From an uncultured Planctomycetaceae bacterium (GTDB taxonomy: Bacteria; Planctomycetota; Phycisphaerae; SM23-33), in the NCBI GenBank assembly GCA_964616985.1, contig CAZTVF010000005.1:6771-70770 (forward strand): a DNA stretch of 64,000 bases, read 5' to 3'. Below, piece by piece: positions 2,269-64,000 of this stretch. The notes under the pieces were generated by a model. It had not been told where the DNA came from and did no database searches. It saw only the letters and a program-made list of their open reading frames with translations. Made by a program: the position numbers and the translations under genes. How positions within the stretch are numbered: position 1 is the first letter of the stretch; every line of letters begins with the position of its first letter.

Positions 2269-2289
2269 AACCGGGAGCCATGCCCCGCA

Positions 2290-5754: not shown

Positions 5755-5799
5755 TCCCAGGGACGACATCATTCGTTGCGTTAAGGAAGACGCCAGGAA

Positions 5800-9423: not shown

Positions 9424-9495
9424 TCAGTTAATCAGTTAATCGGTTGATCGGTTGATCCGTGGATCAGTGGATCAGTTAATCAGTTGATCGGTGCA
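9424..9495 (+). repeat. array of nine tandem 8-bp iteron-like units (TCRGTKRA) directly after the smc stop
   Basis: The units read tcagttaa tcagttaa tcggttga tcggttga tccgtgga tcagtgga tcagttaa tcagttga tcggtgca with a strict 8-bp period. Confidence 0.6.
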
Positions 9496-9590
9496 TGGTG
9501 TATCCCAATCGATCGACAGTGATCCCCGATCTGGTCTATCCGACGATTTGGGTTTCCGCTCGCGATTTCGCGCACGGCGGCCCCTCCTGG

Positions 9591-9654
9591 GGTGGCGGCC
9601 TTCCCAGGCCGCCGCCAGATTGATGAGACGCAATGGTGGGCAAGCCTGCCCACC
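9591..9654. repeat. two REP-like hairpins: family 1 (GGTGGCGGCCTTCCCAGGCCGCCGCC) and family 2 (GGTGGGCAAGCCTGCCCACC)
   Basis: Both are perfect short palindromic stems (GGCGGCCT/AGGCCGCC and GGTGGGCA/TGCCCACC). Copies of the same sequences recur elsewhere in the window. Confidence 0.55.
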
Positions 9655-9670
9655 CTACGGTGGCTGATGC

Positions 9671-9720
9671 AACGATTCACTGATTCACTGATTCACTGAT
9701 CAACCGATTCACTGATTCCC
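9671..9720 (-). repeat. second 8-bp unit array (TTCACTGA x4-6), the inverted complement of the 9424-9495 array
   Basis: The sequence gattcactgattcactgattcactgatcaaccgattcactgattc fits the reverse complement (tYMacYga) of the first array's unit. The two arrays bracket about 175 bp containing the REP hairpins. Confidence 0.5.
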
Positions 9721-9781
9721 CACCGCGCGGCGATTATCGCTTTGCCAAACCCACCGCTTCTGCCGTATATCTTGCATATCT

Positions 9782-11101
9782 ATGCACAACGCAAACCCCA
9801 AGGTCGCGCTGGTGTCGCTGGGCTGCCCCAAGAACCTCGTCGATAGCGAGAAGATGCTCGCTACGCTGGCCGAGGGCGGCTGCGTCGTGGGCGCGCCCAT
9901 GGAAGACGCCGACGTCATCGTGGTCAACACGTGCGGCTTCCTCTCCTCCGCGCGCGAGGAATCGCTGGGCGTGATCCGCGAGGCCCTGGGGCTCAAGGAG
10001 GGTGGCCGCACGCAACGCGTGGTGGTCGCCGGCTGCCTGGTCAATCGCGACGCCAAGAAGCTCTTCAACATCGTCCCTGGCATCGACGCCATCGTCGGCG
10101 TGAACGACCGCGACGCAATCCTCGCCGCCGTGCGGGGGCAGCGGCGCGTGACCAAGGCCCATGCCTATGACGGCGGCATCCTCAGCGACGCCGGCCGCTT
10201 CCGCCTCACCCCTCGCCACACCGCGTATCTCCGCATCGCCGAGGGCTGTTCGCAGCGGTGCACCTTCTGCACCATCCCGGCCATCCGCGGGCCCTTCCGC
10301 TCCAAGCCCGTCGAGCAGATCGTGCAGGAGGCCCGCGAACTGATCGCCGACGGCGCGGTGGAACTCAACCTCATCGCCCAGGACACTACCAGCTTCGGCC
10401 GCGATCTCGAACAGGACCAGACGCTCGCCGGCCTGCTCCGCCGGCTGGACGCGCTGGACGGCGTGCAGTGGATCCGCCTGATGTACGCCTACCCGCGCCG
10501 CTTCACCGACGGCCTGATCGAGGCCATGGCCGAGTGCGAGCACGTATTGCCGTACGTCGATATTCCGCTGCAGCACATCTCGGACAGTGTCCTGCGCCGC
10601 ATGGGCCGCGGCGTCGGCCGCTCGGCCACCGATAAGCTCCTGGCGAAGATGCGCGACCGCATCAAGGGCCTGGTGATCCGCACGGCCTTCATCGTGGGCT
10701 TCCCGGGCGAGACGGAGGCGAACTTCCAGGAACTGCTGCAGTTCGTCAAAGATTTCCGCTTCGACGCCTTGGGCGTTTTCGAGTTCTCGCCCGAGGAAGG
10801 CGCACCCGCCGCCCGCCTGCCTCACGCGGTGGCGGCCGAGGTGAAAACCCATCGCGCCCGCCAGATCATGCTCGCCCAGCGCAAGATCGCGTTTGCCGCA
10901 AACCGCCACAAGATCGGCCGCTCGCTGCAGGTGCTTGTCGACGGCCCCGGCGGGGCGGGGCCGACGACCGGCCGCTATTATGGGCAGGCGCCGGATGTCG
11001 ACAGCGTTTGCCTGTTGACGAAACGCGTCCGGCAGGGACAATTGGTGTCCGCGAAGGTCGCGGGAACCGACGAGTACGACCTGGTAGTGGACCCGATGTA
11101 A
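9782..11101 (+). CDS. rimO: ribosomal protein S12 methylthiotransferase RimO (MiaB-family radical SAM)
   Basis: It has the KVALVSLGCPKNLVDSE N-terminal MTTase domain, the radical SAM CSQRCTFCTIP motif (CxxxCxxC), and a TRAM-like C-terminus. Confidence 0.8.
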   Translation: MHNANPKVALVSLGCPKNLVDSEKMLATLAEGGCVVGAPMEDADVIVVNTCGFLSSAREESLGVIREALGLKEGGRTQRVVVAGCLVNRDAKKLFNIVPGIDAIVGVNDRDAILAAVRGQRRVTKAHAYDGGILSDAGRFRLTPRHTAYLRIAEGCSQRCTFCTIPAIRGPFRSKPVEQIVQEARELIADGAVELNLIAQDTTSFGRDLEQDQTLAGLLRRLDALDGVQWIRLMYAYPRRFTDGLIEAMAECEHVLPYVDIPLQHISDSVLRRMGRGVGRSATDKLLAKMRDRIKGLVIRTAFIVGFPGETEANFQELLQFVKDFRFDALGVFEFSPEEGAPAARLPHAVAAEVKTHRARQIMLAQRKIAFAANRHKIGRSLQVLVDGPGGAGPTTGRYYGQAPDVDSVCLLTKRVRQGQLVSAKVAGTDEYDLVVDPM

Positions 11102-16577: not shown

Positions 16578-17219
16578 TCACTCCGCGTTTGCTGTTCCGT
16601 AAAGCCCGGTCCCAGCGATATATGCGCCCACGGCGTCGGGAACCCAATGTCGTATCGACAGGCCCGTCGCCCGCCGCCGGCGGATTTCGGTGGACGAGAT
16701 ATCGATCAGCGGCGTGGCCACCACGTTCTCCCTCAGCCGCTGCACAGCCTGCAGGCCCAGGGAATCAGCCAAGTTGTGAAACACGATATCGAGCTTCGCG
16801 TCCCAGGGGGGTCTGACGGCCACCAGCAGCGTGGCCAGGTCGAGCACGTCTTTCACCCGGTGCCAGCTTGGCAGATCCGCCAGCATGTCGGCGCCGATGA
16901 CCCAGTTCAACTGCGTCTGCGGGCCGTACTGCTGCCGCAGGAAGCACAGCGTGTCGTAGGTGAAACTTCGGCCGGGGCGATGGATCTCGATCTCGCTGAT
17001 CTCGAAGATGTCGTCCCCTTCGGTCGCCAGGCGGAGCATCGCCAGGCGGTCTGCCGCCGACGCGCGGGCGGGGCCCTTGTGAGGCGGCAGGCCCGAGGGC
17101 ACCAGCACGATCTTGCCGATGCCCCTGTGCTCGGCCAGCGACCGCGCGACGATCAGGTGCCCGTTGTGCACCGGGTCGAACGTGCCGCCGAAACAGACGA
17201 TGGATTTCGCTTCGGTCAT
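16578..17219 (-). CDS. nadD: nicotinate-nucleotide adenylyltransferase
   Basis: It starts MTEAKSIVCFGGTFDPVHNGHL (HxGH motif) and ends ISSTEIRRR. The track ORF has a 31-aa spurious extension. It overlaps the DUF58 gene stop by ATGA. Confidence 0.75.
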   Translation of the reverse strand: MTEAKSIVCFGGTFDPVHNGHLIVARSLAEHRGIGKIVLVPSGLPPHKGPARASAADRLAMLRLATEGDDIFEISEIEIHRPGRSFTYDTLCFLRQQYGPQTQLNWVIGADMLADLPSWHRVKDVLDLATLLVAVRPPWDAKLDIVFHNLADSLGLQAVQRLRENVVATPLIDISSTEIRRRRATGLSIRHWVPDAVGAYIAGTGLYGTANAE

Positions 17220-18112
17220 TTTCCCTGTCGCTGGGCGAGGAATTCGAGGAGGGCCTTGTCGAAGGTCATGGCGTTGTCGACGGTGATGAAATCCGCCCGC
17301 ACGCTCTGGCACTGCCGCTTGTACTCATCGATGAACGCCTGAATTTCCTTGAGGTACGACGCGCGGATCGCCTGCGGGTCGACCTCGATCGTCTCGCCGG
17401 TCTCGGGCTCCTCGAACCGCACCTGCCCGTCGAACTCGAACGTCAATTCGCTGTGGTCGAGCACCTGGAAGATGATCATGTCGTGCCCGCGGTACTTGAG
17501 GTGATGCAGCGCCTTGATCACTTCCTCCTGCCCGGCCAGCAGGTCCGACAGCAGGATGATCAGCCCGCGTTTCTTGATTCGTCCGGCCACGTCGTGCAGC
17601 GCGGCGGCCAGGTTCGTCTTCGCCGACGGCCGCGTCCGCGCGAGGATCGACAGGATATTCATCAGGTGCGACCGCTTGCTCTTGGGCGGCAGGAAGCCTC
17701 GCACCTTCTCGTCAAAGGTCACCAGGCCCACCGAGTCCTGCTGATGCACCATCATGTACCCCAGTGCCGCGGCCAGCGAGATGGCGTAATCCATCTTGCT
17801 CATCCGGCCGCCGGTGGCGTACGCCATCGACCCCGAGCAATCGACCAGCAGGTATGCGTCGAGGTTGGTCTCGGCCTGGTACTTCTTGATGTAGAAGCGG
17901 TCGGTCTTGCCGTACACGCCCCAGTCGATCTGGCGAATGTCGTCGCCGGGCACGTACTTGCGGTGCTCGGAGAACTCCACCGAGAAGCCGTGGTATGGCG
18001 AGGCATGCAGGCCCGAGAGGAACCCCTCGACGATGAATCGCGCCTTGAGGTCCAGCCGCACCACCTGCTGGATCACGTCCGGACGCAGATACTGTTCGAT
18101 GTTCAGTGACAT
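17216..18112 (-). CDS. DUF58-family protein (vWA-like; normally MoxR-associated)
   Basis: YHGFSVEFSEHRKYVPGDDIRQIDW and LLVDCSGSMAY (MIDAS-like DxSxS) are typical of DUF58. Confidence 0.7.
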   Translation of the reverse strand: MSLNIEQYLRPDVIQQVVRLDLKARFIVEGFLSGLHASPYHGFSVEFSEHRKYVPGDDIRQIDWGVYGKTDRFYIKKYQAETNLDAYLLVDCSGSMAYATGGRMSKMDYAISLAAALGYMMVHQQDSVGLVTFDEKVRGFLPPKSKRSHLMNILSILARTRPSAKTNLAAALHDVAGRIKKRGLIILLSDLLAGQEEVIKALHHLKYRGHDMIIFQVLDHSELTFEFDGQVRFEEPETGETIEVDPQAIRASYLKEIQAFIDEYKRQCQSVRADFITVDNAMTFDKALLEFLAQRQGK

Positions 18113-18234
18113 CGTCTCAGAGTGTACCCCATCGCAAGGGCGGAAGGAAGTGCGGCGCGTGGCTTGGCGGCTGCGTTCGCGTGACGCCCAGATTCGGTGG
18201 GCCCCACCTGGACGTCCAGCCCCCGTAAGCTTCT

Positions 18235-18400
18235 GAACATGTCAGCCCATGGCGGAAACCATGGGATTCGGGGCCGCGTGTCTGCAAGCCCCGGCAGGGG
18301 CGACATACGCGTCGTCCGGTGTCGCCCCTGCCGGGGCTCAGGAAAACGCTCAACTGACCTCATCGACCCACGGCTTCCGCCGTGGGCTAACATGTTTGAG
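18235..18400. repeat. composite palindromic element: two inverted ~30-bp hairpin units flanking an 18-bp-stem hairpin
   Basis: AACATGTCAGCCCATGGCGGAAACCATGGG (18235-18264) and its inverted relative CCCACGGCTTCCGCCGTGGGCTAACATGTT (18369-18398) flank GCCCCGGCAGGGGCGACA...TGTCGCCCCTGCCGGGGC. Confidence 0.45.
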
Positions 18401-18514
18401 GACCGCTTTGCTCAAACGCGTGCCCGCCGGGGGCCGGTACAGGACAGAGCCTTGCCGCGGCAACGGATTCGTCCAGAAACAACGGCCACGCCTGTCACGA
18501 ACGTGGGATCGTTC

Positions 18515-20158
18515 TCACTTCGCCAGGAACGCCTCGATGGCGGCGGCGCAGGCGTCGAGCGAGACGCGGCCGGTCTGTGGATTGCCGCGGACGCCGCCGA
18601 TCCACTCGATGGGCTTTTCCATGAAGTACGTCTCGTGCACCTTGTACATCATCTGGTAGCAGAAGCGTTGTGCGTCCAGGACCATCGCCTCGCGTGCAGC
18701 CGGCGGCAGGTCGGACGACAGTCCCGGCCACGTCTTGCCCGCGGCGAGATTGACGGCCGCCAAGGCCGTCACCACCGTGGTGGGGGCCTGGCCCTGGGCG
18801 GCGAACCCGCCGGCTTCATCCAGGGGGCTGTCGATCGGCACCGGCAGCGGCAGGGCGGTTGTCACGCCCTCCCAGTTGCGCGTCTCGGCCAGGCCCGCGC
18901 GGATCATCCAGCAGGCGGACAATGCATCCTGGGCCACCAGCTTGGGCGGCGGCTGTATGGCGGGGGCGTTTGACTCGGCCAGTCGCGACAGGGCCAGGCC
19001 CGCCAGTGTCGCGTTGAGCAGCGAGGCCGGCTGCGTGCTCGAGCGGTCCAGCGTCGCCGTCGGCCAGCCGTCGCGTAAGGCCCGGCGCATCGCGGCAGCC
19101 AGCTTGGCCCGCACCGCGGCGATCTGGTCGTTGGGCTTGAGCTCGCCGATGGCCAGCAGCATCAGCGCCGTCGCCGCCAGCTGGTCGTCCTCGGCCTCGG
19201 TCATCAGGAATGCCCCGCCGGCTTCTTCGCGCAGGCAGGTCATCGCGTAGTGCATCGCCGCGTTGACGGTCTTGGAATAGTCCTCGCGGCCGGTGGCCTT
19301 GGCCAGGCGGGCGAGGGCGTAGGTGGCGTACATGTGCTCGCGGAGGCTGGGCTGGGCCAGCGGGGCGATGAACTGGCCGCTGGTGTCCTGGCTGCGGACG
19401 AGGAAGTCGGCCACCAGCGACGCCCCCGTGCGGACGGCGTTGGGGTCCATCGCGCCAAACGGCTGCAGGGCCTTGCCGCGATACAGCCACACCACCTTCT
19501 CCTGCGGATAGCTGACGAACTGCGCCACCGAGAACGCCGACCATCGTATCGGCATGCGGACATTCTCGGGCTTGACCGGCAGCTGGGCGATCGCGAGGTT
19601 GCGGATTCTCGACGGCGTGAGGCCGTCCTGCAGCTGGGCCGAGGGGAACACGAAGGATTCATCGACGCCCCGGGTCGCCTTCACGCCGGTCAAGCCAGGC
19701 ATGGCCAGGCGGGCGAAGGCCTCGGCGTTGCCGTCGATGGGCACCGTCGCGGTGAATACCTCCAGGTCCAGCGTCGTCGCATCGAGGACGGCGGGCGTGA
19801 CCTTGTCCGGCAGAGGCTCCGCGCCGCGCATCACCTCCAGGGCGGCCGCGATCACGTTGCGACCCAACTCGCGCCCTTGCTGAATGCTCGTGGCGGCAAC
19901 GACGCCATCCTTCCGCAATGTCAGGCGGGCGGAATAGGGGCGCTTCGCCAGGGCCGCCAGCCGATCGGGGATGAACTGCTTGTCGGCGGGCGCTCGCGTG
20001 CGGAGATACTCGCTCATTGCCGACCTCGCCAGGTCCAGCAGGGCCGTGCCATCGCCAAGGCCAAGCTCGGGGACGGGGGGCAGCGGGTCGGCCGGCGCCT
20101 GTGAATACGCCGCAGAGCTCAGCAAAAGGACGATTACCATCGGAATGGTTTTGGCCAT
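18515..20158 (-). CDS. secreted hypothetical protein (alpha-helical repeat fold?)
   Basis: It has a signal peptide (MAKTIPMVIVLLLSSAAYSQAP). No motif was confidently recognised. The start was set at the second in-frame Met. Confidence 0.35.
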   Translation of the reverse strand: MAKTIPMVIVLLLSSAAYSQAPADPLPPVPELGLGDGTALLDLARSAMSEYLRTRAPADKQFIPDRLAALAKRPYSARLTLRKDGVVAATSIQQGRELGRNVIAAALEVMRGAEPLPDKVTPAVLDATTLDLEVFTATVPIDGNAEAFARLAMPGLTGVKATRGVDESFVFPSAQLQDGLTPSRIRNLAIAQLPVKPENVRMPIRWSAFSVAQFVSYPQEKVVWLYRGKALQPFGAMDPNAVRTGASLVADFLVRSQDTSGQFIAPLAQPSLREHMYATYALARLAKATGREDYSKTVNAAMHYAMTCLREEAGGAFLMTEAEDDQLAATALMLLAIGELKPNDQIAAVRAKLAAAMRRALRDGWPTATLDRSSTQPASLLNATLAGLALSRLAESNAPAIQPPPKLVAQDALSACWMIRAGLAETRNWEGVTTALPLPVPIDSPLDEAGGFAAQGQAPTTVVTALAAVNLAAGKTWPGLSSDLPPAAREAMVLDAQRFCYQMMYKVHETYFMEKPIEWIGGVRGNPQTGRVSLDACAAAIEAFLAK

Positions 20159-45341: not shown

Positions 45342-45414
45342 GCGCCGCTAGCTCAGTTGGTAGAGCAGGTGACTCTTAATCACCGGGTCGTAGGTTCGAC
45401 TCCTACGCGGCGCA
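45342..45414 (+). tRNA. tRNA-Lys (anticodon CTT)
   Basis: The manual fold gives acceptor GCGCCGC/GCGGCGC, a D-arm GCTCAGTTGGTAGAGC, an anticodon stem GGTGA/TCACC with loop CTCTTAA (U33, anticodon CUU, A37), a T-arm GTAGG-TTCGACT-CCTAC, and discriminator A. The CCA is not encoded. Confidence 0.8.
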
Positions 45415-45417
45415 CGT

Positions 45418-53100: not shown

Positions 53101-53273
53101 TCTTCAGTAGACGCTCGATTGCCCGGAAGGATTCCCCGCCGGCCCCAAACTTCGCCACGCGTGTTCCTGAAGTACGACAGATTGTTCGGATTGTGCCCTA
53201 GCCGCGCCACGATGTATCGCATATCGTGATGGCGGTGGCGAGTGATCGAAATGACGAGTGATTGGATTGCATT

Positions 53274-54218
53274 ATGATCGATGAAGTTCCCCGCGGCGTC
53301 TGGCCGGTCATGCTGACGCCATTTCGGGATGACGGAAGCGTGGACTGGCCCGGCGTGGATGCCCTCACCGACTGGTACATCGCCAGCGGCGTCGCGGGGC
53401 TGTTCGCCGTCTGCCTGTCCAGCGAGATGTACCACCTGTCGCCGCAGGAGCGAGTGCAACTGGCGGCCCGTGTCGTCCAGCGATCGGCCGGTCGCGTGCC
53501 GGTCGTTGCCGCGGGCGCCTTTGGGGACTCGCTGGAGCAACAGGCCGCGGCGGCCCGGAGGATCGCCGATACCGGCGTGGCGGCCGTGGTGCTCACTGCC
53601 AACCAGCTGGCGGCCGAAACGGGATCGGATGCCGCCTGGCAGGAGAACGCCGAGGCGATGCTCGATGCCTGTCCATTGATCCCGCTGGGGCTGTACGAGT
53701 GCCCCGTGCCCTATCATCGCACGCTGAGCGCGGAATTGACCGGCTGGGCCGCACAAACCGGGCGGTTCCTGTTCTTGAAGGACACCTGCTGCCGGCGCGA
53801 CCAGCTCGAGGCAAAACTGAAGCGGCTGGACGGTTCGCCGCTGCGTTCGTACAACGCTCACTGCCCGACGTTGCTGCATTCGCTCTGCACGGGCGGGGCC
53901 GGCTACAGCGGCATCGCGGCCAACTTCTACCCCGAGCTGTTCGTCCGCCTGTGCGCCCAGTTCGCGGATCGCCCAGCCGAGGCCAGCCGCCTGCAGCGAT
54001 TCCTTACGCTGGCCGACCTGACGATCCGCATGCGGTACCCGGCGTCAGCCAAGCGGTATCTTGGCCTGCTGGGCCTGCCGATCGGCTCGTTCTGCCGCCT
54101 GCCGATGCCCGCGCCCCGCGCCGATGATGATGAGGAAATGATGCTGGCGAACCTGCGGCAAGCCGTTGACGAGATGAAGGACGAGTTGGGGTGTCGCACG
54201 AAGGCCGCGCAGCGATAG
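53274..54218 (+). CDS. dihydrodipicolinate synthase / N-acetylneuraminate lyase family (class I aldolase) protein
   Basis: WPVMLTPFRDDGSVDW...GVAGLFAVCLSSEMYHLSPQER follows the DHDPS/NAL N-terminal pattern. It lies next to sialidase-like genes. Confidence 0.6.
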   Translation: MIDEVPRGVWPVMLTPFRDDGSVDWPGVDALTDWYIASGVAGLFAVCLSSEMYHLSPQERVQLAARVVQRSAGRVPVVAAGAFGDSLEQQAAAARRIADTGVAAVVLTANQLAAETGSDAAWQENAEAMLDACPLIPLGLYECPVPYHRTLSAELTGWAAQTGRFLFLKDTCCRRDQLEAKLKRLDGSPLRSYNAHCPTLLHSLCTGGAGYSGIAANFYPELFVRLCAQFADRPAEASRLQRFLTLADLTIRMRYPASAKRYLGLLGLPIGSFCRLPMPAPRADDDEEMMLANLRQAVDEMKDELGCRTKAAQR

Positions 54219-54230
54219 CGAGGAGAGACC

Positions 54231-55313
54231 ATGGGAGCCCCCGGGAACGTTCAGCACGTGAAGGTGTATTCGGAGCAGGGCAAGTTTGCCGGCTGGCCGG
54301 CCAACAGCGGCCTGTGGGCCTGGGGCAACGAACTGCTGGTCGGCTTCGCGTTGGCCGATCACGACGAAAGCCAGAAAGGCCACAAATACGCCTACCAGAC
54401 GGCGCGTCAGCAGTTTGCCCGCAGCCTCGACGGCGGCCAGACATGGACGCTCGAGGACGCATTCGGATGCGGGATCACGGCCCTGTCGCAGGACCACGTC
54501 GCCGTCGCCAACGCCGCCGCGCCGGGGGATTGCCCCGGCAACTGCGACTTCACCCACCCGGATTTCGCGATGACCTTTCGCCGGGCCAACGATGTAGACG
54601 GCCGATCGCATTTCTATGTGACGAGCGACCGTGGCCGGGCCTGGAAGGGGCCGTACGCATTTCCAAACCTGGGCAATCCGGGCATGCTCGCACGCACCGA
54701 CTATTTTGTTGAAGGCCCCCGCGCGATGCTGGCGATGTTGACGGCGTCCAAGACGAACCGCCAGGAAGGGCGCGTCGGCTGCGCCCGCACCTGCGACGGC
54801 GGCCGCTCGTGGCAGTGGGTTTCGTGGGTGGATGAGGAGCCCAAAGGTTACGCGATCATGCCGGCGACGGTGAGGCTGGCGACGGGGCGGCTGGTGTGCG
54901 TCGTGCGCCGCCGGGGCGATAATCGCTGCTGGCTGGCGGGCTACATCTCCGAAGACAACGCCGCGACCTGGCGGCGCATCGCCGACCCCGCTCCCCAGAC
55001 CGGGCACGGCGGCAGCCCCGCTGCGCTGGTCGTCTTGGCCGACGGCCGGCTGTGCCTCGCCTACGCCGTGCGGGGCACGAGCCCCCAGGACGCATCCCGC
55101 ATCTGCGTGCGGTTCAGTGCTGACGGCGGCGAAGGCTGGGGCGAGGAAATCGTCATTCGCGGCAACGATGGCGCGAACTGGGACATCGGCTATCCGCGGA
55201 TCGCACAACGCCCCGACGGCAAGGTGGTGGTATTGTATTACTACAATCACGGCTGGATCGAATCGCCCTCCTACCGCTACATCGCGGCGACACTGTTCGA
55301 TCCGCAAGCCTGA
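54231..55313 (+). CDS. BNR/Asp-box repeat exo-alpha-sialidase-like protein
   Basis: It has four Asp-box motifs (SLDGGQTW, TSDRGRAW, TCDGGRSW, SADGGEGW) and the RBS GAGGAGAG. Confidence 0.6.
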   Translation: MGAPGNVQHVKVYSEQGKFAGWPANSGLWAWGNELLVGFALADHDESQKGHKYAYQTARQQFARSLDGGQTWTLEDAFGCGITALSQDHVAVANAAAPGDCPGNCDFTHPDFAMTFRRANDVDGRSHFYVTSDRGRAWKGPYAFPNLGNPGMLARTDYFVEGPRAMLAMLTASKTNRQEGRVGCARTCDGGRSWQWVSWVDEEPKGYAIMPATVRLATGRLVCVVRRRGDNRCWLAGYISEDNAATWRRIADPAPQTGHGGSPAALVVLADGRLCLAYAVRGTSPQDASRICVRFSADGGEGWGEEIVIRGNDGANWDIGYPRIAQRPDGKVVVLYYYNHGWIESPSYRYIAATLFDPQA

Positions 55314-55360
55314 TCGCTGGTGGACCTGATTGCAGGAACGCCGTAGCCGGAGAACCCGAC

Positions 55361-57733
55361 ATGGAGAAGATTGTCTACTCACGTGAGGTGCCCGTCCGCT
55401 GGAATGTGGACGTGGCCGTCGTCGGGGGCGGCATGGCCGGCGTGTGCGCCGCCTGCGCCGCGGCCGATAGCGGCGCGACGGTGGCGCTGGTCGAACGCTT
55501 CGCCTCCACCGGGGGCATGATGACCAACGGCGGTGTCAACAACTTCAGCGGCGAGACGGGCGGGCAGGGCCGCGTTTTCGACGAGATCATCGCGCATCTC
55601 GGCGCCTTCGGCGCCATCGCGCCGTACAAGCCGTGGGTCCCTTTTGGCCCCGAGCGGGGCTTCGACCACGAGATCCTCAAGAGCGTGCTCCAGGAAGTCC
55701 TGCTGAGGCGGGGCGTGATGCTGCTGCTGCATAGCCGGTTTGTGGATGTGGCCGGGGCGGCCGACGGGCGGATCGACAGCGTTGTGCTGCGGGGCAATTC
55801 CGGCCCCGAGGCGTTGCGGGCGAAGCAGTTCATCGATTGCACCGGCGAGGGTGAGCTCGCCCACATGGCCGGCTGCGAGACGATGAAGGGGCGGCCGGGG
55901 GACGAGCTGCAGCTGCCGATGAGCCTGATGTATTTCGTGCGCGAGGTCGATGACGCGGACCGCGCCGCCCAAGTGCCCGAGGGCTGGCAGGAGCAGATCG
56001 TGGTCGAGGCCGACCTGCCGATGACCAGCATCTGGGCGAACGGCCCGCGCAGCAAGGCGATCAAGATCAAGGTGATCGGCCACGATTCGACCGACACCGA
56101 GAGCATCAGCCGGGCCGAGATCGCCGCCCGGCGTCGGATGCTGCAGGTGCTCGATTTCCACCAGCGGCGTTCGGGCAAGCCGTGGCGGCTGGCGTATGCC
56201 TCGCCCATCATCGGCATCCGCGAGGGGCGGCGGGTCGTCGGCGAGTACGTCCTCACCGAAGCCGATGTCCGCTCCGGGCGGGCCTTCGACGACGGCGTGG
56301 CCGTGGGGAGCTACTACCTCGACGCCCACGAGCCGACGACCGACAAACGTGTCAGCACGATCGCCGACCGGGAGCAGGCGCGGGTGCCCCCTTACCACAT
56401 CCCGCTGCGCAGCCTGGTCGCGCGGGACGCCCGCAACCTCTGGATGGCCGGGCGGAACATGTCGGCCGACTACTTCGCGCTCAGCTCGGCCCGCGTCTCG
56501 CCCACGTGTGCGATGATGGGCCAGGCCGCCGGCGTGGCGGCGGCCATCGCCGCACAGCGTGGTCTTGCGGCCCGCAACGTGCCGGCGGGGGAGGTGCGGC
56601 GGGTGCTGCTCGACCGCGACGCTAATCTGAACACCACTGGGCGCCCATCGTCGCCGCCACGGATCGCCAATCCCGGATATGACGCGAGCACCGCCCGCCC
56701 GCTGCCGGTCGAGCGGACGTGGCTGTATCAGCCGGCGACTGAATGGACCTATTCCCACCACCCGCACCTGGCCCACTTCAATGGCCGCTATGTGGCCGTG
56801 TGGTCCAATGGGCGGCAGGATGAGGACGGGCCCGGCCAGCGCGTGCTTTGCGCCACTTCGACCGACTTCCGCCAATGGACGACGCCGACGCCGCTGCTGG
56901 ATACGCAGCCGGGCAAGCATACGGAACTGGTGCTGACCGCGGCGGGGCTCCATCGGCACGCGGGCAACCTCGTCGCGTACATCGCCTGCTACGAGTGGTG
57001 CCCCGACGCCCTGGTCGACGGCCGGCGGCAGAAGGGCATCCGGAAGCACTTCGACAAGACGCTGCTGACGATGACGACGGCCGACGGCGTGCACTGGGCG
57101 GGGCCCGCGGATCTGCAGATGGGCATCGTGCCCAACCATGGCCCGCAGCGCACGGCGTCGGGCAGGCTCATCATCAGTTGTGATAGCACGTTCCCATTCA
57201 CGGACGACCAGGCGGGGCTGGGCGGGTGGCAGATGAGCGGCATCCGCCCGTGCGACATGCCGCCGGGCGTTCACCTGTGCGAAGGGTCGTTCTACCAGAC
57301 CGACGACGGCGTGCTGCACATGCTGCTCCGCAGCGACACCGCCCGCTTGTGGCTGACCGAGAGCCGCGACGACGGCGTGACGTGGTCGGCGCCGGTGCCC
57401 ACGCAATTCACCGACAACGCCACCAAGTTCCACTTCGGTCGCCTGCCGGATGGGCGATTCTACTACGTCGGTTGTCCGGATCCCGAGCCGCCATGGCAAC
57501 GTTGTCCGCTGGTGCTGTCGCTGTCGCGTGACGGCGTCCAGTTCAGCCGTCACTTCATTCTCGCCGGCGCCGACACGCCCTACACCCGCCGCCGCGACGG
57601 CGTGTGCAAGGGCGGCGACTACGGCTACCCCCACACGCTGATCCACGGCGATGCGCTGCACGTCATCGTCTCGCGACGCAAGGAAGCCGTCGAAGTGTTG
57701 AGCGTGCCGCTGGCGGCCCTGGGCGCTGAGTGA
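55361..57733 (+). CDS. fusion protein: N-terminal FAD-dependent oxidoreductase domain plus C-terminal BNR/sialidase-like domain
   Basis: The N-terminus VDVAVVGGGMAGVCAACAAADSGATVALVERF...GQAAGVAAAIAAQ is homologous to the stand-alone FAD protein at 33360-34769. The C-terminus has Asp-boxes (TTADGVHW, SRDDGVTW, SLSRDGVQF). It is one uninterrupted 790-aa ORF. Confidence 0.55.
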   Translation: MEKIVYSREVPVRWNVDVAVVGGGMAGVCAACAAADSGATVALVERFASTGGMMTNGGVNNFSGETGGQGRVFDEIIAHLGAFGAIAPYKPWVPFGPERGFDHEILKSVLQEVLLRRGVMLLLHSRFVDVAGAADGRIDSVVLRGNSGPEALRAKQFIDCTGEGELAHMAGCETMKGRPGDELQLPMSLMYFVREVDDADRAAQVPEGWQEQIVVEADLPMTSIWANGPRSKAIKIKVIGHDSTDTESISRAEIAARRRMLQVLDFHQRRSGKPWRLAYASPIIGIREGRRVVGEYVLTEADVRSGRAFDDGVAVGSYYLDAHEPTTDKRVSTIADREQARVPPYHIPLRSLVARDARNLWMAGRNMSADYFALSSARVSPTCAMMGQAAGVAAAIAAQRGLAARNVPAGEVRRVLLDRDANLNTTGRPSSPPRIANPGYDASTARPLPVERTWLYQPATEWTYSHHPHLAHFNGRYVAVWSNGRQDEDGPGQRVLCATSTDFRQWTTPTPLLDTQPGKHTELVLTAAGLHRHAGNLVAYIACYEWCPDALVDGRRQKGIRKHFDKTLLTMTTADGVHWAGPADLQMGIVPNHGPQRTASGRLIISCDSTFPFTDDQAGLGGWQMSGIRPCDMPPGVHLCEGSFYQTDDGVLHMLLRSDTARLWLTESRDDGVTWSAPVPTQFTDNATKFHFGRLPDGRFYYVGCPDPEPPWQRCPLVLSLSRDGVQFSRHFILAGADTPYTRRRDGVCKGGDYGYPHTLIHGDALHVIVSRRKEAVEVLSVPLAALGAE

Positions 57734-58067: not shown

Positions 58068-59024
58068 ATGATGAACGGCGCTCACGTATTCAAGGTCCTT
58101 TTGGTCGAGGACAACCCGGGGGACGCCCGCCTGATTGAGATGGCTCTCAGAACGCCGGCGGCTGCATTCCGTCTGATTCACGTCGAGACCCTGGCCGCAG
58201 CCTTGAAGGAGATCCGCCAGTCGCCATATGACTTGGTCCTGCTGGACCTGCATCTTCCCGACAGCGATGGCAGCGAGACCTACGAGAATATTCTGGCCGG
58301 TACGCATCAGGTGCCGATCGTCGTCCTGACCAGCCAGGAGGACGATGTGCTCGCGATGAAAGCAATCGCCGCCGGGGTGCAGGACTACCTGGTCAAAGGC
58401 TCAATCAGCGAATTCGCGATGAGGCGATGTCTACGCTACGCGCGGGAACGTAAGCGACTGGAATTGGAGCTCCAGAAGGCGAACGAGACCCTTGAGCAGC
58501 GCGTGAAGGAGCGGACGGCCGAACTGGAGAAATCGGTCACGCTGCTGGGCCAGGAGATGACCGAGCACACCCGCGCCGACGAAGAGGCCGAGGAGGCCCG
58601 GAAGCGGTTCTACGAGATTCTCGACGAACTGCCCATGGTGTTCTGGATCGCCAGCGCCGACTCCATGCAGACCATCCATTGCAGCCGCCACTATGAAGAA
58701 GTCACCGGCCGCTCCTCCGACTCGTCCGGCAACCGCGGCTGGGCCGAAGCGATCCATCCCGACGACCGACCGGCGGTAGTGGCCGAGTTCGACAATTGGC
58801 TTCACCAGGCCCAGAGGGGCCATATGCCTCCCCTGGAGCAGAGCTTCCGAGTTCAGGGCGTCAACGGCCGCACGTTGCCGTTCCGCTGCCGCACGTTCGG
58901 CATCTGGGAGGCCAACGGGTCGCTCCGGTACATCTGCGGGATCGGCGAAGAGCGACCCGTCGAGGAAGCAGCCGGGGGCACGGCGTCCCGCTGGCAGAAA
59001 CTGAGACACGTTCTTTCGAAGTAG
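58068..59024 (+). CDS. response regulator with REC receiver domain plus PAS domain
   Basis: The REC domain reads KVLLVEDNPGDARLIEMAL...DLVLLDLHLPDSDG...PIVVLTSQEDDVLAMKAIAAGVQDYLVKG. A coiled-coil linker and a PAS-like C-terminus follow (MVFWIASADSMQTIHCSRHYEEVTG). Confidence 0.7.
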   Translation: MMNGAHVFKVLLVEDNPGDARLIEMALRTPAAAFRLIHVETLAAALKEIRQSPYDLVLLDLHLPDSDGSETYENILAGTHQVPIVVLTSQEDDVLAMKAIAAGVQDYLVKGSISEFAMRRCLRYARERKRLELELQKANETLEQRVKERTAELEKSVTLLGQEMTEHTRADEEAEEARKRFYEILDELPMVFWIASADSMQTIHCSRHYEEVTGRSSDSSGNRGWAEAIHPDDRPAVVAEFDNWLHQAQRGHMPPLEQSFRVQGVNGRTLPFRCRTFGIWEANGSLRYICGIGEERPVEEAAGGTASRWQKLRHVLSK

Positions 59025-59094
59025 GTGGTGAACTGCCGATGACGCCCGGCCGCGACGCGTCACACCCCCGACAAAATCACATTCGGCCCCCGAC

Positions 59095-59141
59095 AGCGGG
59101 CGATGGGATTCGAACCCACGACAGCTAGCTTGGAAGGCTAT
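59095..59141 (-). other. tRNA-Gly(UCC) 3'-half remnant (anticodon stem-loop through discriminator); candidate att site of an integrated element
   Basis: The minus strand reads ATAGC-CTTCCAA-GCTAG / CTGTC / GTGGG-TTCGAAT-CCCAT / CGCCCGC-T. That is an anticodon loop with UCC, a canonical T-loop, and the Gly-type acceptor CGCCCGC+U. No D-arm or 5' acceptor strand lies upstream, so it is a fragment. Confidence 0.5.
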
Positions 59142-59324
59142 GAGCATAGCGCGCAAGGGGATGAATCCACCGATACTTGCAGCGCGGCCCCCGGCAGTGC
59201 CAACCAATCTGCCAACCATTCCGCGCAAGAACTGGCCGAAATCGTCAAGGCTTGGCCTACGCTCCCCGACGCCGTCAAGGCTGGTATCCTGGCGATGGTC
59301 AAGGCCAGCGGGACGGCGAGGTGA

Positions 59325-59730
59325 GACCGTGAGGACGCCGACGCCAACGACTGGCCCAGACCAAGGCAGAACCCGCGGCAGCAATGGCCGCTTTCGCAAA
59401 GGCAACCCCGGCGGGCCGGGCAACCCTCACGTCGGCAGCGTCGCGGCCTTTCGGGCCGCGCTCTTCGAGGTCGTAACCGAGAAGGACATCGTGGCCGTCT
59501 GGCGGAAGCTTGTAGCCCTGGCCAAGGCCGGCGAGCCCTGGGCCATCAAGGAGTTCCTGGACAGGACGCTGGGCAAGGCCGTGCAGGCGGCTGAGGTGCG
59601 CGATGAGCCCGATGAGGAGAAGCGGTCCGTGAGGACCTGGGCCGAGATCATGCGACCCTACACGAATATTCGCCTGCCCCTGCCGCCAGGCGTGCCGCGT
59701 CCCCACCCAGGCCCAGAACGCCGGGCATGA
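59325..59730 (+). CDS. phage/mobile-element-type small protein (DUF5681 / terminase-small-subunit-like Gly-Pro box), hypothetical
   Basis: FRKGNPGGPGNPH resembles the KGxSGNPxGRP box of that family, from memory. It is followed by DIVAVWRKLVALAKAGEPWAIKEFLDRTLGK. A possible GTG start lies just after the stop of a 73-aa ORF (59103-59324, ...ELAEIVKAWPTLPDAVKAGILAMVKA). Confidence 0.3.
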
Positions 59731-60079
59731 CCACCCCTGTCGCACCCCTATGTCATCATGCGGCTGTCTCGAGCTTGCGGGCTGAGCCAGTTTGATGGAT
59801 AATCCCCCGGCCACCAGTCTTCGTGATTGCCGGGGAACATAGTTTTCGAACGAGTCGGCAGCGAAGTACGGGGCCTCAAGGCCGCTATGCAATGACAACT
59901 GCCTACCATGCACGCTATTACGCCTTCAGATACAGCCAGTAGCGCCGTCCTGCGCGAATGGCTGCGGGACGTGATCGGCTCGCAGAAACGATCCGGCGCA
60001 GCTGGAAGTGTTTGTCGGTTGCGGCGGCCAGGTCTTTCCGGCGGGAACACCCCGCTCTTGAAGTGATGAACAAGAAGGA

Positions 60080-62389
60080 GTGAAGTGGATCGTGGATCAA
60101 ACAATGCAAAACAAGATCGTCTCCTTCATCTGGGGCATCGCCGACGATGTGCTGCGCGACCTGTTCAAACGCGGTAAGTATCCGGACGTGATCCTGCCGA
60201 TGTGCGTCATCCGACGCATGGACGCGGTGCTCGAACCGACCAAACAAGAGGTGCTCGGCACCAAGAAGATGCTGGACGAGAGCGGCATTACCGAGCAGCG
60301 CGCGGCCCTCTGCGAGGCGGCGGGACAGGCCTTTTACAACACCTCGCGCTTCACCCTGCGCGACCTGAAGTCGCGCGGCAGCCAGCAGCAACTCCTTGCC
60401 GACTTCGAGGACTATCTCAACGGCTTCTCGCCCAACGTCCAGGACATCATCGAAAACTTCAAATTCCGCAACCAGCTATCCACACTGTCGAAGGCCGATG
60501 CACTGGGTACGCTGATCAGCAAGTTTCTCGACCCCGATATTGACCTCTCCCCGGCCGGCATCGACAACCACTCGATGGGCACGGTCTTTGAGGAGCTGGT
60601 CCGCAAGTTCAACGAGGAGAACAACGAAGAGGCGGGCGAGCACTGGACGCCGCGCGATGCCGTGCGGCTGATGGCGAACCTCGTCTTCCTGCCAATCGAG
60701 GCGAAGCTCAAATCCGGCACCTACCTGCTCTACGACTGCGCGTGCGGCACCGGCGGCATGCTGACCGTGGCGGAGGAGACGCTCACGGCCATCGGCGCGA
60801 AGCGTAAGCGGCAGATCAAAAGCCTCCTCTACGGCCAGGAGATCAACCCCGAGACCTATGCTGTCTGCAAGGCGGACATGCTGCTCAAAGGCGAAGGCGA
60901 GAGCGCCGACCACATCGTCGGCGGCGCGGAATGGTCCACGCTCCAGCACGACGCCTTCCCGGCGCAGGAGTTCGACTTCATGCTCGCCAACCCGCCCTAT
61001 GGCAAGAGCTGGAAGAAGGACCTCGAAGCGATGGGTGGCAAGGATGGCATGCGCGACCCGCGGTTCAAGGTGATGCTCGCCGACGAGGAGTTGTCGCTCG
61101 TCACCCGCTCCAGCGACGGGCAGATGCTCTTTCTGGCCAACATGGCGTCGAAAATGAACGGCAGGTCGGCACTGGGCAGCCGCATCGCCGAGGTCCACAA
61201 CGGCAGCTCGCTCTTCACCGGCGACGCGGGCCAGGGCGAGAGCAACATCCGCCGCTGGCTCATTGAGAACGACTGGCTGGAGGCCATCGTCGCCCTGCCG
61301 CTCAACCTCTTCTACAACACCGGCATCGCCACCTACATCTGGGTGCTGTCGAACAGGAAGCCCGAGCATCGCAAGGGCCAGGTCCAGCTTATCGATGCGA
61401 CCCAGTGGTTCAAGCCGCTTCGCAAGAACCTCGGCAAGAAAAACTGCGAGCTCTCGCCCGAAGATATCGAACGTATCAGCCGCACCTTCCTTGAGTTTAA
61501 GGAAACGCCCGAGTCGAAGAGATTCGTCAACGCCGCCTTCGGGTACTGGAAGGTCACGGTCGAGCGCCCGCTGCGCCTGCACAGCCAGCTCTCGCTCAAG
61601 GCCATCGAGACGCTGCGGTTCGCCTCCGGCGACGAAGACGTGCGCGCCGCACTCTATGAGGAGTTCGGCGACGACCTCTTCACGAAGTTCGCCAAGATCT
61701 CTTCCTCGCTGGAAAAACGCCTCGCTGACTGGGGCGACGATGAGGACGACGATGAAGAGGGCGGCAGCGCCAAGAAGGGCATGCCCGAGAAGAAGAAAAA
61801 GAAACTGCTCGACCCCAGGACCTGGGAGCGAGACGGGCGCCTCGTCGAGACGGCCACGGCACTTCGCACGGCGCTGGGCGATAAGCTCTTTAAGGATCAT
61901 AACATCTTCCGCGATCGCGTGGATGCCGCGATCGAGAAGGTCGACCTCAAGCTCCCCGCCGGCGACCTGAAGCAGATACTCAAGGCCGTGAGCTGGCGAG
62001 TCGAGACCGCGCCGCCGGTGATCGCCAAGGTCCACAGGCCGGGCAAGGCGACGGTGGATCCGCTGCACGGCCGCTACGCCTCGCCCGTCGGCGACCCGAA
62101 ACTCGTGCTGGAATACGAACCCGACTCCGATCTGCGCGACACCGAGCAGGTGCCGCTCCTGGAAGAAGGCGGCATCGAGGCCTTCTTCCGCCGCGAGGTG
62201 CTGCCGTACACGCCCGACGCGTGGATCAAGGAGGACGCCACGAAGATCGGCTACGAGGTGAGCTTCACCCGCCATTTCTACAAGCCGCCGCCGCTGCGCA
62301 CGCTGGAGGAGATTAGCGCCGACATCCTCGCCATCGAGAAAGAGGCCGGGGGGCTGCTGGATGGGCTATTGAAGGGGGTCGCGAGGTGA
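60080..62389 (+). CDS. hsdM: type I restriction-modification system DNA methyltransferase subunit HsdM
   Basis: It has the HsdM N-terminal domain (IVSFIWGIADDVLRDLFKRGKYPDVILPM), the SAM-binding motif LLYDCACGTGGML, and the catalytic FDFMLANPPYG (NPPY). It runs 769 aa with an acidic C-terminal insert. The start is ambiguous (GTG 60080 or 60092, ATG 60104). Confidence 0.85.
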   Translation: MKWIVDQTMQNKIVSFIWGIADDVLRDLFKRGKYPDVILPMCVIRRMDAVLEPTKQEVLGTKKMLDESGITEQRAALCEAAGQAFYNTSRFTLRDLKSRGSQQQLLADFEDYLNGFSPNVQDIIENFKFRNQLSTLSKADALGTLISKFLDPDIDLSPAGIDNHSMGTVFEELVRKFNEENNEEAGEHWTPRDAVRLMANLVFLPIEAKLKSGTYLLYDCACGTGGMLTVAEETLTAIGAKRKRQIKSLLYGQEINPETYAVCKADMLLKGEGESADHIVGGAEWSTLQHDAFPAQEFDFMLANPPYGKSWKKDLEAMGGKDGMRDPRFKVMLADEELSLVTRSSDGQMLFLANMASKMNGRSALGSRIAEVHNGSSLFTGDAGQGESNIRRWLIENDWLEAIVALPLNLFYNTGIATYIWVLSNRKPEHRKGQVQLIDATQWFKPLRKNLGKKNCELSPEDIERISRTFLEFKETPESKRFVNAAFGYWKVTVERPLRLHSQLSLKAIETLRFASGDEDVRAALYEEFGDDLFTKFAKISSSLEKRLADWGDDEDDDEEGGSAKKGMPEKKKKKLLDPRTWERDGRLVETATALRTALGDKLFKDHNIFRDRVDAAIEKVDLKLPAGDLKQILKAVSWRVETAPPVIAKVHRPGKATVDPLHGRYASPVGDPKLVLEYEPDSDLRDTEQVPLLEEGGIEAFFRREVLPYTPDAWIKEDATKIGYEVSFTRHFYKPPPLRTLEEISADILAIEKEAGGLLDGLLKGVAR

Positions 62390-63768
62390 TCGCCGATCTC
62401 AAGCCATATCCGGAATACAAGGAGTCGGGGTTGCCCTGGCTTGGTGGAATCCCGCGGCATTGGGACGCCGGGCCGGGTTTCGCGGCTTTCCGTGAAAAGC
62501 AGGTCAAGAATACCGGGATGCGAGAGAAGACCGTGCTCTCGTTGAGCTACGGTCGCATCGTGGTGAAACCGCCCGAGAAACTGCACGGCCTCGTGCCGGA
62601 ATCTTTTGAGACCTACCAGGTTGTTGACCCCGGCGACATCATCATCCGCTCGACTGATCTGCAGAATGACTGGAACAGCCTGCGGGTTGGGCTTGTTCGC
62701 AATCGCGGCATCATTACATCCGCCTATCTTTGCTTCCGCACGACGGGTACGCTCCATCCTGAATACGGCTACCAGCTTCTTCATGCCTTCGATTTGATGA
62801 AGGTGTTTTATGGCTTGGGCTCGGGCCTGCGCCAGAATCTTGATTTCGGCGACTTCAAGCGGATGCTCATATTCTTGCCATCGCCCGCGGAGCAGGCGGC
62901 GATTGTGCGGTTTCTGGACTGGGCGAACGGGCGGCTGGAGCGGGCGATCCGGGCGAAGCGAAAGGTGATCACGCTGCTCACGGAGCAGAAGCAGGCCATC
63001 ATCCACCGCGCCGTCACCCGCGGCCTCGACCCCTCCGTTCCCCTCAAACCATCCGGCATCCCCTGGCTCGGGGACATTCCGCAGCATTGGGAGATTTCGC
63101 GCAGCAGGAGGCTGTTTTCTGCTCGAAAAAATCTTGCATTGCCCGACGACGTGCAACTTTCAGCAACTCAGGCATATGGGGTGATTCCACAGGCTGACTT
63201 TGAAAAGAAGGTCGGGCGACGAGTTGTAAAAATCTCTATGCATTTGGAGAAGCGTCGTCACGTTGAAAGAGATGATTTCGTTATCAGCATGAGGAGCTTT
63301 CAGGGAGGGCTCGAACGTGCATGGGCGCCAGGAGCCATCAGGTCCTCATACGTCGTTTTGAAGTCAGAGCAGAACGTTGATGTTGGTTTTTTCGCCTACC
63401 TATTCAAATCACGCGGCTATATCGGCGCCTTGCAGGCAACTGCCGATTTCATTCGAGACGGACAAGACCTCAATTTCGGGAATTTTTGCCGAGTCGATCT
63501 ACCATTGATCCCGCTAGAGGAGCAGAGGACAATCGCGCAGTTCATTGCCAGCGCGACGGTGGGTATCGACACAACTCGTTTCCGCCTCGAACGCGAGATC
63601 GAGCTCCTCCGCGAATACCGCACCCGCCTCGTCGCCGACGTAGTGACCGGCAAACTCGATGTGCGCGAGGCAGCCGCGCGGTTGCCCGAGGAGCCCACTC
63701 CCGACGCCGCGGTTTCCGACGAAGATTTGCCCGACGACGTGGAACTTGAACCCGAGGCCACCGAATGA
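62386..63768 (+). CDS. hsdS: type I restriction-modification specificity subunit HsdS (two target-recognition domains)
   Basis: It has conserved HsdS spacer regions (LPSPAEQAAIVRFLDWANGRLERAIRAKRKVITLLTEQKQAIIHRAVTRG and LPLIPLEEQRTIAQFIASATVGIDTTRFRLEREIELLREYRTRLVADVVTGKLDV) around two TRDs. It overlaps hsdM by ATGA. Confidence 0.8.
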   Translation: MIADLKPYPEYKESGLPWLGGIPRHWDAGPGFAAFREKQVKNTGMREKTVLSLSYGRIVVKPPEKLHGLVPESFETYQVVDPGDIIIRSTDLQNDWNSLRVGLVRNRGIITSAYLCFRTTGTLHPEYGYQLLHAFDLMKVFYGLGSGLRQNLDFGDFKRMLIFLPSPAEQAAIVRFLDWANGRLERAIRAKRKVITLLTEQKQAIIHRAVTRGLDPSVPLKPSGIPWLGDIPQHWEISRSRRLFSARKNLALPDDVQLSATQAYGVIPQADFEKKVGRRVVKISMHLEKRRHVERDDFVISMRSFQGGLERAWAPGAIRSSYVVLKSEQNVDVGFFAYLFKSRGYIGALQATADFIRDGQDLNFGNFCRVDLPLIPLEEQRTIAQFIASATVGIDTTRFRLEREIELLREYRTRLVADVVTGKLDVREAAARLPEEPTPDAAVSDEDLPDDVELEPEATE

Positions 63769-64000
63769 ACGCGCAGGAACTTACCGCCCTGTTGGATCGC
63801 CTTCGCCGTGAACCGCACGAGACGGAGTGGCTGGAGTTCAAGGAGAACCAATATGAGCCGCAGCTTCTCGGCGAGTATCTCTCCGCGCTGGCCAACGCGG
63901 CCTGCCTGGCCGGCAAGCCGCGAGGCTACCTTGTGTTTGGCGTCCAGGATCAAACCCATGCCGTGGTGGGCACGCTGTTCGACCCCCACGCGGCCAAGGG
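63765..64000 (+). CDS. AlbA_2 (Schlafen/divergent-AAA-like) DNA-binding domain protein, N-terminal part (runs off the window)
   Basis: ETEWLEFKENQYEP...YLSALANAACLAGKPRGYLVFGVQD matches the ExxLEFKE hallmark of the AlbA_2 domain commonly encoded inside type I R-M loci. It overlaps the hsdS stop. Confidence 0.45.
   Translation, partial: MNAQELTALLDRLRREPHETEWLEFKENQYEPQLLGEYLSALANAACLAGKPRGYLVFGVQDQTHAVVGTLFDPHAAK

Follow-up and report, generated by a model that had tools for sequence, protein, structure and literature searches.

Why should a bare 3' part of a tRNA-Gly gene lie between a response-regulator gene and a type I restriction-modification system in the genome of an uncultured Planctomycetaceae bacterium, and do the genes on one side of it form an inserted element? 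The DNA concerned is a stretch of 64,000 nucleotides (nt) from contig CAZTVF010000005.1, here called the window, to which all positions refer unless a locus is named. The right-hand end of the window holds the tRNA piece at 59095-59141, two small open reading frames (ORFs) designated ORF A and ORF B, and the genes hsdM and hsdS followed by the beginning of a Schlafen/AlbA_2-domain gene (table 1). We consider it likely that 59095-59141 is the attachment (att) junction of an integrative element, which would have inserted into a tRNA-Gly(UCC) gene by means of a tyrosine integrase and would extend to the right of the junction.

Read on the minus strand from 59141 to 59095, the 47 nt (ATAGC-CTTCCAA-GCTAG-CTGTC-GTGGG-TTCGAAT-CCCAT-CGCCCGC-T) take in an anticodon stem-loop, whose anticodon is UCC, then a variable loop and a T-arm, and finally the 3' acceptor strand with the discriminator. 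A preliminary description of the locus had seen here the 3' half of tRNA-Gly(UCC), lacking a D-arm and being a remnant instead of a gene, and our reading of the anticodon loop, T-arm, acceptor, and discriminator leads to the same result. ARAGORN called no tRNA at this position, the sole tRNA that it found in the window being a tRNA-Lys(CTT) at 45342-45415, and the Rfam tRNA model gave 18.6 bits (E = 1.2) against a gathering score of 29, in a fit that required deletion of the D-arm (15 nt reduced to 3) and left two of the seven acceptor pairs mismatched. Because of the subthreshold score, the deleted D-arm, and the acceptor mismatches, we regard the sequence as a fragment; a genuine tRNA gene of the D-arm-less kind was considered as well, and was ruled out by the same score and the mismatched acceptor. 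The genes of the proposed element are found 5' of the fragment, and the chromosomal flank is found 3' of it.

The Rfam match taken alone is not significant, as would be expected if the likeness to a tRNA had arisen by chance and the genes to its right were native to the chromosome. That explanation is scarcely credible, given that the 25 nt of the T-arm and acceptor are identical to those of a tRNA-Gly fragment in another locus (L072), that the stems show compensatory changes, that tRNA fragments accompany ORF A and ORF B in many loci, and that the region is an outlier in composition. The same 25 nt have a single copy in the window and none in 100 shuffles. Compared with the intact tRNA-Gly(UCC) of locus L116, the differences fall on both sides of the stems (TAGC/GCTA vs. 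CAGC/GCTG, and GTGGG/CCCAT vs. GACGG/CCGTT), and these compensatory changes indicate descent from a functional tRNA.

The recombination event itself seems to have left its trace in ORF A. At its N-terminus (MGFEPT...), this ORF translates the antisense strand of the tRNA T-arm, and at its C-terminus it carries the motif ELAEIVKAWPTLPDAVKAGILAMV. In the protein collection it is a singleton cluster; nevertheless, its full length aligns to the C-terminal approximately 100 residues of long-form integrases of 490-534 aa (P0015, P0017, P0047, P0053, and others) and to the integrase of locus L093. This alignment runs from MGFEPT to ...AGILAMVKASG, and the frame has no similarity left of the fragment. 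The integrase family concerned (A3) has more than 1,669 members, mainly from metagenome genomes of Phycisphaerae and Planctomycetota, with long forms making up about 12 of the best 120 integrase matches; in these, the catalytic domain is followed by an antisense-tRNA peptide (...GFEPT...) and then by a tail of the form DPDLAAxxAAWPxLPxAVRAGIVAMV. ORF A looks like the severed C-terminal tail of the integrase frame of the element, and the simplest reading would be that the attachment site of the element (attP) is contained in the 3'-terminal part of the integrase ORF, with integration stranding the tail at the distal junction. Continuity of the frame would by itself be weak evidence, because the high GC content keeps many frames open; it is the homology of ORF A to integrase tails that makes ORF A itself evidence of a recombination junction at 59095-59141. 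Of the two small phage-type ORFs noticed in the preliminary description, both are thus present, but ORF A is not an independent phage gene, given its end-to-end alignment with the integrase tail.

An unbroken counterpart is found in locus L093, where one ORF of 521 aa contains the integrase, the att core, and the ORF A motif and is followed by ORF B and later by an AAA_25 gene; this would be the order expected of an excised (attP) or tandem form. A Logan contig of 9,081 bp from six samples (L160 1-9081) likewise encodes a long-form integrase with attP in the ORF, together with a DUF3987 primase-type protein and an HTH_17 gene. Since the same repeat protein is cut at both of its ends, the contig perhaps represents an excised element in circular form; no exact overlap between its termini was found. 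ORF A of the window also contains a tandem 12-nt repeat, which may represent a putative pair of arm-type integrase-binding sites and not a coding signal.

The second ORF connects the window with a large number of other loci. ORF B contains GRFRKGNPGGPGNPH; an identical protein is on record (P0001), and relatives with 41-62% identity are encoded on over 200 contigs from metagenomes and on 10 from IMG/VR. All 17 of the 17 invariant residues of the family alignment (A1) are kept in ORF B, which is the conserved marker gene by which the element family is recognized. We surveyed 83 loci with enough sequence for a strict T-arm motif on the antisense strand, no more than 800 nt upstream of the ORF B homologue. 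The motif was present in 11 of the 83. As for the controls, the sense strand had it in 1 of 83 loci, and the downstream searches gave 1 of 79 and 0 of 79; several further loci have imperfect or shorter copies of such fragments. At most of the fragment sites, ARAGORN detected no intact tRNA. Fragments of tRNA-Gly(CCC) that start at the anticodon stem, as the one in the window does, were found upstream of ORF A and ORF B homologues in L072, L147, and L106/107/109, and other tRNAs supply the fragments in further ORF B loci; the 3' ends in L066 (below the Rfam threshold) and L069 (recognized by eye) resemble that of transfer-messenger RNA (tmRNA).

Three of these relatives (L094, L143, and L086) are complete, with an intact tRNA at one end and a direct repeat of part of it at the other (coordinates in table 1). 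Their common order is the fragment, an ORF A-like ORF, ORF B, other genes, a Phage_integrase gene, and an intact tRNA on the strand of the fragment, so that ORF B is near the fragment and the integrase gene reads into the intact tRNA. The backbones include HTH_17 excisionase-like genes and an AAA_25 protein, in L143 also a HigB/HigA pair, and no recognizable structural genes were found in any of the three. At 5-11 kb, they resemble satellites or integrative mobilizable elements, not prophages. With the antisense fragments of the survey and these three elements, the earlier proposal that the fragment is an att-type left boundary with the element to its right is now supported by loci other than the window, and the three elements have just the geometry that this proposal foresaw.

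The gene order to the right of ORF B is consistent with variable cargo. In the relatives, the position beside ORF B is occupied by a type III restriction-modification system in L075, in both L107 and L109 by an SNF2 helicase (with a phospholipase D [PLD] nuclease ahead of it in L109), and by FG-GAP surface proteins in L100; L086 has at this position, within its direct repeats, a DUF4917/SIR2-like gene along with a type III restriction-modification system. The closest parallel to the window is L098 (10726-17531), in which HsdM, HsdS, a Macro-domain passenger, and HsdR are encoded directly downstream of the ORF B homologue. This is like the order of ORF B, hsdM, hsdS, and passenger in the window, but the two HsdM proteins are only 24% identical, and the two type I systems were therefore acquired independently at the same slot. 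From the matching layout of L098, it is likely that the restriction-modification genes of the window lie within the same element as ORF B and that an hsdR follows the AlbA_2 gene. The preliminary description had taken these genes for island cargo, and the type III and type I systems beside ORF B in the relatives support this; the order hsdM-hsdS-AlbA_2 that it gave is confirmed by the PADLOC and Pfam matches (table 1).

A composite origin was weighed against this. Tandem accretion at one tRNA site would produce a composite island, in which one small element would comprise the fragment, ORF A, and ORF B, and a second one, inserted within or beside the first, the type I genes. The GC content does vary inside the region (ORF B 0.687, hsdM 0.626, and hsdS 0.576), and in L085, L093, L079, and L122, an integrase and then an att fragment are found directly upstream of ORF B, which would fit tandem copies or circular forms. 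However, between ORF B and hsdM, there is neither an extra att repeat nor a recombinase, and in L086, the restriction-modification genes adjoin ORF B within a single pair of direct repeats. We therefore hold two elements in place of one to be improbable.

The composition of the region also sets it apart from the remainder of the window, as the preliminary description had stated for GC content. The GC content of 59142-64000 is 0.616, compared with 0.664 for 1-59094, and is below that of every equal-sized window of 1-59094 (range 0.641-0.682); in strand-symmetric tetranucleotide usage, no other 4-kb window deviates as strongly as 60001-64000 (z = 4.5). Within hsdS, the second target-recognition domain has a GC content of 0.51, close to the earlier estimate of about 50%. 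A second tetranucleotide outlier, at 5000-11000 (z of approximately 3.6-3.7), coincides with an ORF of 1207 aa at 5800-9423. Because there is this other outlier at 5-10 kb, the composition is suggestive and not decisive. The tRNA-Lys(CTT) gene mentioned above lies in a local GC dip (0.61); an island at this tRNA was considered and rejected, since the next gene encodes a sodium:dicarboxylate symporter (SDF) and no integrase is present.

To the left of the fragment are ordinary chromosomal genes, encoding a dihydrodipicolinate synthase (DHDPS) family protein, a BNR protein, a fusion of a flavin adenine dinucleotide (FAD) oxidoreductase with BNR repeats, and the REC-PAS response regulator. The nucleotides between the REC-PAS stop codon and the 3' end of the fragment would be those that originally followed the tRNA-Gly gene.

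Taken together, these observations suggest the following course of integration. The attP, located in this family within the 3' end of the integrase frame, would have held a tRNA copy that begins with the anticodon stem and is complete to the 3' end. Recombination would rebuild an intact tRNA at the integrase end, which is predicted to lie to the right of position 64000 on the minus strand, and would leave the bare 47-nt copy at the left end, with the original flank and the REC-PAS gene to its left. In the same step, integration would sever the last approximately 70-100 codons of the integrase, here represented by ORF A. The predicted integrase, of family A3, would read into the intact tRNA-Gly(UCC) (...RAMGFEPTTASLEGY...). 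Directly after ORF B there would be a variable cargo slot, filled here by a type I system of hsdM, hsdS, the AlbA_2 passenger, and presumably hsdR.

Several results weigh against an integrated element of this form. No integrase homologue is encoded within the 64-kb window, none of the best 120 integrases of the family lies on the source contig, a 79,060-bp record to which ORF A, ORF B, and HsdS are each assigned, and the second copy of the repeat is absent from the window. A 41-aa query made from the antisense-tRNA peptide yielded no candidate, a negative that is uninformative because ORF A, although in the collection, was missed as well. The exact 47-mer had no match in 185,579 reference genomes, the Joint Genome Institute (JGI) metagenomes, or IMG/VR, and exact look-ups of the HsdS, HsdM (from two start codons), REC-PAS, and FAD-BNR proteins gave no match. 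The search for an empty site compared 64 loci with the flanking FAD-BNR gene, and none of the 64 provided one or was syntenic to the right of that gene; the closest of these relatives, in metagenome genomes of Verrucomicrobiota and Lentisphaerota, are at most 79% identical, and in the 29 loci scanned with ARAGORN, the closest included, no tRNA was found. ORF B is furthermore not always distal to the integrase, being located just upstream of it in L130 and L134; from the position of the L134 homologue, it follows that gene order varies within the family, L134 itself holding an element at 407-8334 bounded by a 35-nt direct repeat of tRNA-Sec. As for the nature of ORF B, its match to DUF5681 (16.3 bits) and that of the L094 homologue (23.9 bits) are below the Pfam cut-off of 27.5 bits, and its weak AlphaFold model, with an overall predicted local distance difference test (pLDDT) score of 64, has no Foldseek neighbor at E <= 0.001.

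The missing integrase, in the window as among the best 120 family members on the source contig, would also be explained if the element had decayed, so that its distal end alone is left, with the fragment, ORF A, and ORF B; the end containing the integrase and the intact tRNA would then have been lost or rearranged, and the restriction-modification cassette would be either a separate arrival or the last cargo. The 349-nt gap of lower GC content from ORF B to hsdM could be seen in the same light. Such decay seems unlikely to us: the stems of the fragment are undisrupted, ORF B has kept its invariant residues and ORF A the tail motif, and hsdM and hsdS are of full length. Retaining the reading of 59095-59141 as the junction of an integrated element, we infer that the integrase and an intact tRNA-Gly are still present in this copy.

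What ORF B does is suggested by its neighbors in viral sequences. On the IMG/VR contigs L150 and L159, its homologue lies directly upstream of a Terminase_6N large terminase, which is followed by a portal or portal-associated (DUF4055) gene. The occurrence of ORF B homologues next to large terminase and portal genes would accord with a full prophage, with ORF B as the small terminase and the structural genes further right. We judge this very improbable, as ORF B of the window is followed by hsdM and not by a large terminase, and as the complete relatives with the same layout of fragment, ORF A, and ORF B measure only 5-11 kb and have no recognizable structural genes. For the integrated element preferred here, the position of the homologues on phage contigs suggests packaging or mobilization by a helper phage, in the manner of a satellite.

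Searches with the ORF B sequence in PHROGs, NCBIfam, PADLOC, and the PDB gave no match, and only a three-helix core (residues 33-80) of the AlphaFold model is confident. ORF B is probably a small-terminase-like DNA-recognition or packaging protein, an assignment drawn from gene position in the relatives only, because the model is weak and has no significant structural neighbor. The preliminary description had compared this ORF, on account of a Gly/Pro box, to terminase-small/DUF5681 proteins; the box is there and the homologues do occupy the small-terminase position, but with the scores given above, kinship to DUF5681 would be at most distant. In the portion of the literature that was accessible, DUF5681 was found in a single paper, which concerns a Salmonella phage.

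Some further observations concern the junction and its neighbors. A stretch at 59142-59154, next to the att core in the direction of the element, is partly complementary to the 3' acceptor strand (five of seven pairs), and a similar stretch in L147 (48-120) forms six of seven pairs, with ARAGORN calling the L147 sequence a tRNA with an abnormal D region; both stretches may be due to chance or be a trace of the origin of attP. The Logan contig L065 (1,505 bp, SRR12261225) corresponds to 58635-60139 of the window and shows the junction of chromosome, fragment, and ORF A unbroken; it breaks off within REC-PAS on one side and where hsdM begins on the other, perhaps because coverage is low or because strains vary at the boundary of the cargo. 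Of the cargo genes, hsdM encodes a protein about 250 aa longer than usual, which is still matched end to end by one PADLOC MTase_I model and contains at residues ~556-626 an acidic, lysine-rich stretch of low complexity (DWGDDEDDDEEGG...KKKKK). An internal 41-nt repeat (D2) in hsdS marks two conserved regions, and the ATG of the AlbA_2 gene overlaps the hsdS stop codon (ATGA). In the chromosome to the left, the cluster of DHDPS-family, BNR-repeat, and FAD-oxidoreductase-BNR fusion genes (53262-57733) resembles a locus for sialic-acid or glycan utilization; the 790-aa fusion protein has relatives across the Planctomycetes-Verrucomicrobia-Chlamydiae (PVC) group, Armatimonadota, and Chloroflexota, and in one Paenibacillus genome.

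Table 1. Features at the right-hand end of the window and in three complete relatives
Feature	Position	Strand	Evidence and remarks
REC-PAS response-regulator gene	58068-59024		Pfam domains
Chromosomal flank between REC-PAS stop and fragment 3' end	59025-59094		Similarity of related fragments ends right 3' of the acceptor
3' part of tRNA-Gly(UCC), anticodon stem to discriminator	59095-59141	-	Proposed att core, integrase-distal (attR-type) junction
ORF A, 73 aa	59103-59324	+	Aligned to integrase C-terminal tails; called as a 73-aa gene by the gene caller on the Logan contig
Tandem 12-nt repeat, TGCCAACCAATC / TGCCAACCATTC	59198-59221	+	Read from the sequence; inside ORF A, ~60 nt from the att core
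ORF B, 133 aa, DUF5681-like	59329-59730	+	Most likely GTG start, 5 nt past the ORF A stop and 7 nt past GAGG
Noncoding gap, 349 nt	59731-60079		Between ORF B and cargo; GC 0.59, two weak terminator-like hairpins
hsdM, 769 aa, long C-terminal extension	60080-62389	+	PADLOC MTase_I 842 bits, full length; Pfam N6_Mtase, HsdM_N
hsdS, 460 aa, two target-recognition domains	62386-63768	+	PADLOC Specificity_I 362 bits, full length; Pfam Methylase_S 23.2 bits
Schlafen/AlbA_2-domain gene, N-terminal 78 codons	63765-64000	+	Runs off the window; Pfam SLFN_AlbA_2 36.4 bits vs. cut-off of 25.3
L094, complete element	Intact tRNA-Phe 15031-15103; 50-nt direct repeat at 9767; ORF B 9989-10285; integrase 13740-15092	- (tRNA)	~5.3 kb
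L143, complete element	Intact tRNA-Val 18161-18234; 23-nt direct repeat at 9643; ORF B 9971-10282; integrase 16891-18201	- (tRNA)	~8.6 kb
L086, complete element	Intact tRNA-Phe 19486-19560; 23-nt direct repeat at 8793; ORF B 9995-10288; integrase 18088-19548	- (tRNA)	~10.7 kb

An integrative island that targets a tRNA gene and carries defence cargo is ordinary, being of a well-known kind. Islands and prophages that target the 3' ends of tRNA and tmRNA genes share with the window the bare 3' tRNA copy at the distal junction, and with its relatives the integrase beside the rebuilt tRNA, the direct repeats of 23-50 nt, and the choice of targets (tRNA-Gly, Phe, Val, and Sec, and tmRNA-like 3' ends). 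Williams in 2002 reportedly divided tRNA-targeting integration into anticodon-loop and T-loop sublocation classes, and the window resembles the former, as its repeat starts at the anticodon stem. It differs from the known islands in that its tRNA copy is known from the distal junction alone, and in that the family is found in metagenome genomes of the PVC group and Planctomycetota.

Phage satellites that have a small terminase of their own together with accessory or defence genes are known from the islands of the Staphylococcus aureus pathogenicity island (SaPI) and phage-inducible chromosomal island (PICI) type, and P4-like satellites have defence hotspots. The relatives of the window are similarly small (5-11 kb) and without structural genes, with an integrase at one end, a small-terminase-type gene near the other with variable defence cargo beside it, HTH_17 excisionase-like genes, and a replication-type protein (AAA_25 or DUF3987). 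However, they have no homology to SaPI, PICI, or P4 genes, the family is known here from its genes alone, and neither the sequence nor the fold of ORF B matches any characterized small terminase significantly.

An att core inside a reading frame of the element also has parallels. In the integration-dependent immunity of mycobacteriophages, attP lies inside the repressor gene. The archaeal integrases of the Sulfolobus spindle-shaped virus (SSV) type have attP inside int, so that integration partitions the gene (review, PMC8371274). In these cases as in the present family, the att core is within a frame of the element, and the integrated and excised states therefore encode different C-termini. 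The difference from the SSV-type integrases is that the host here is a bacterium and only the tail beyond the catalytic tyrosine would be removed, leaving the catalytic domain intact. The cargo, finally, is similar to type I operons with a passenger between hsdS and hsdR in having hsdM, hsdS, and an AlbA_2 gene with overlapping start and stop codons (L098 having a Macro-domain passenger), and differs in the unusual length of its HsdM (769 aa) and in being read only as far as the start of the AlbA_2 gene.

The only unusual points would be the split tail of the integrase and the terminase-like gene beside the cargo slot. The element family appears not to have been described previously, no literature search having been aimed at such elements in PVC or Planctomycetota. 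A far-reaching proposal would be that ORF A, ORF B, and their cognate integrases define an undescribed family of satellite-like elements of 5-11 kb, widespread in Planctomycetota and the PVC group, with a small-terminase-like gene by a defence cargo slot and with an attP-in-integrase switch that reports the state of integration; the excised form would encode a long integrase with the conserved AWPxLPxAVRAGIxAMV tail, whereas after integration there would be an integrase lacking the tail and a stranded ORF A. We offer this tentatively, and think it rather doubtful in its entirety.

For this genome, the junction explains the presence of a type I restriction-modification system of foreign composition beside a response-regulator gene, and it predicts that beyond position 64000 there are an hsdR, a few core genes, and an integrase frame reading into an intact tRNA-Gly(UCC), with a direct repeat of 47 nt. 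For the PVC group and Planctomycetota, which are poorly studied, ORF A and ORF B together provide a sequence handle on small elements that target tRNA and tmRNA genes and move defence genes. If ORF B truly has a role in packaging, these small elements without structural genes would act like phage satellites.

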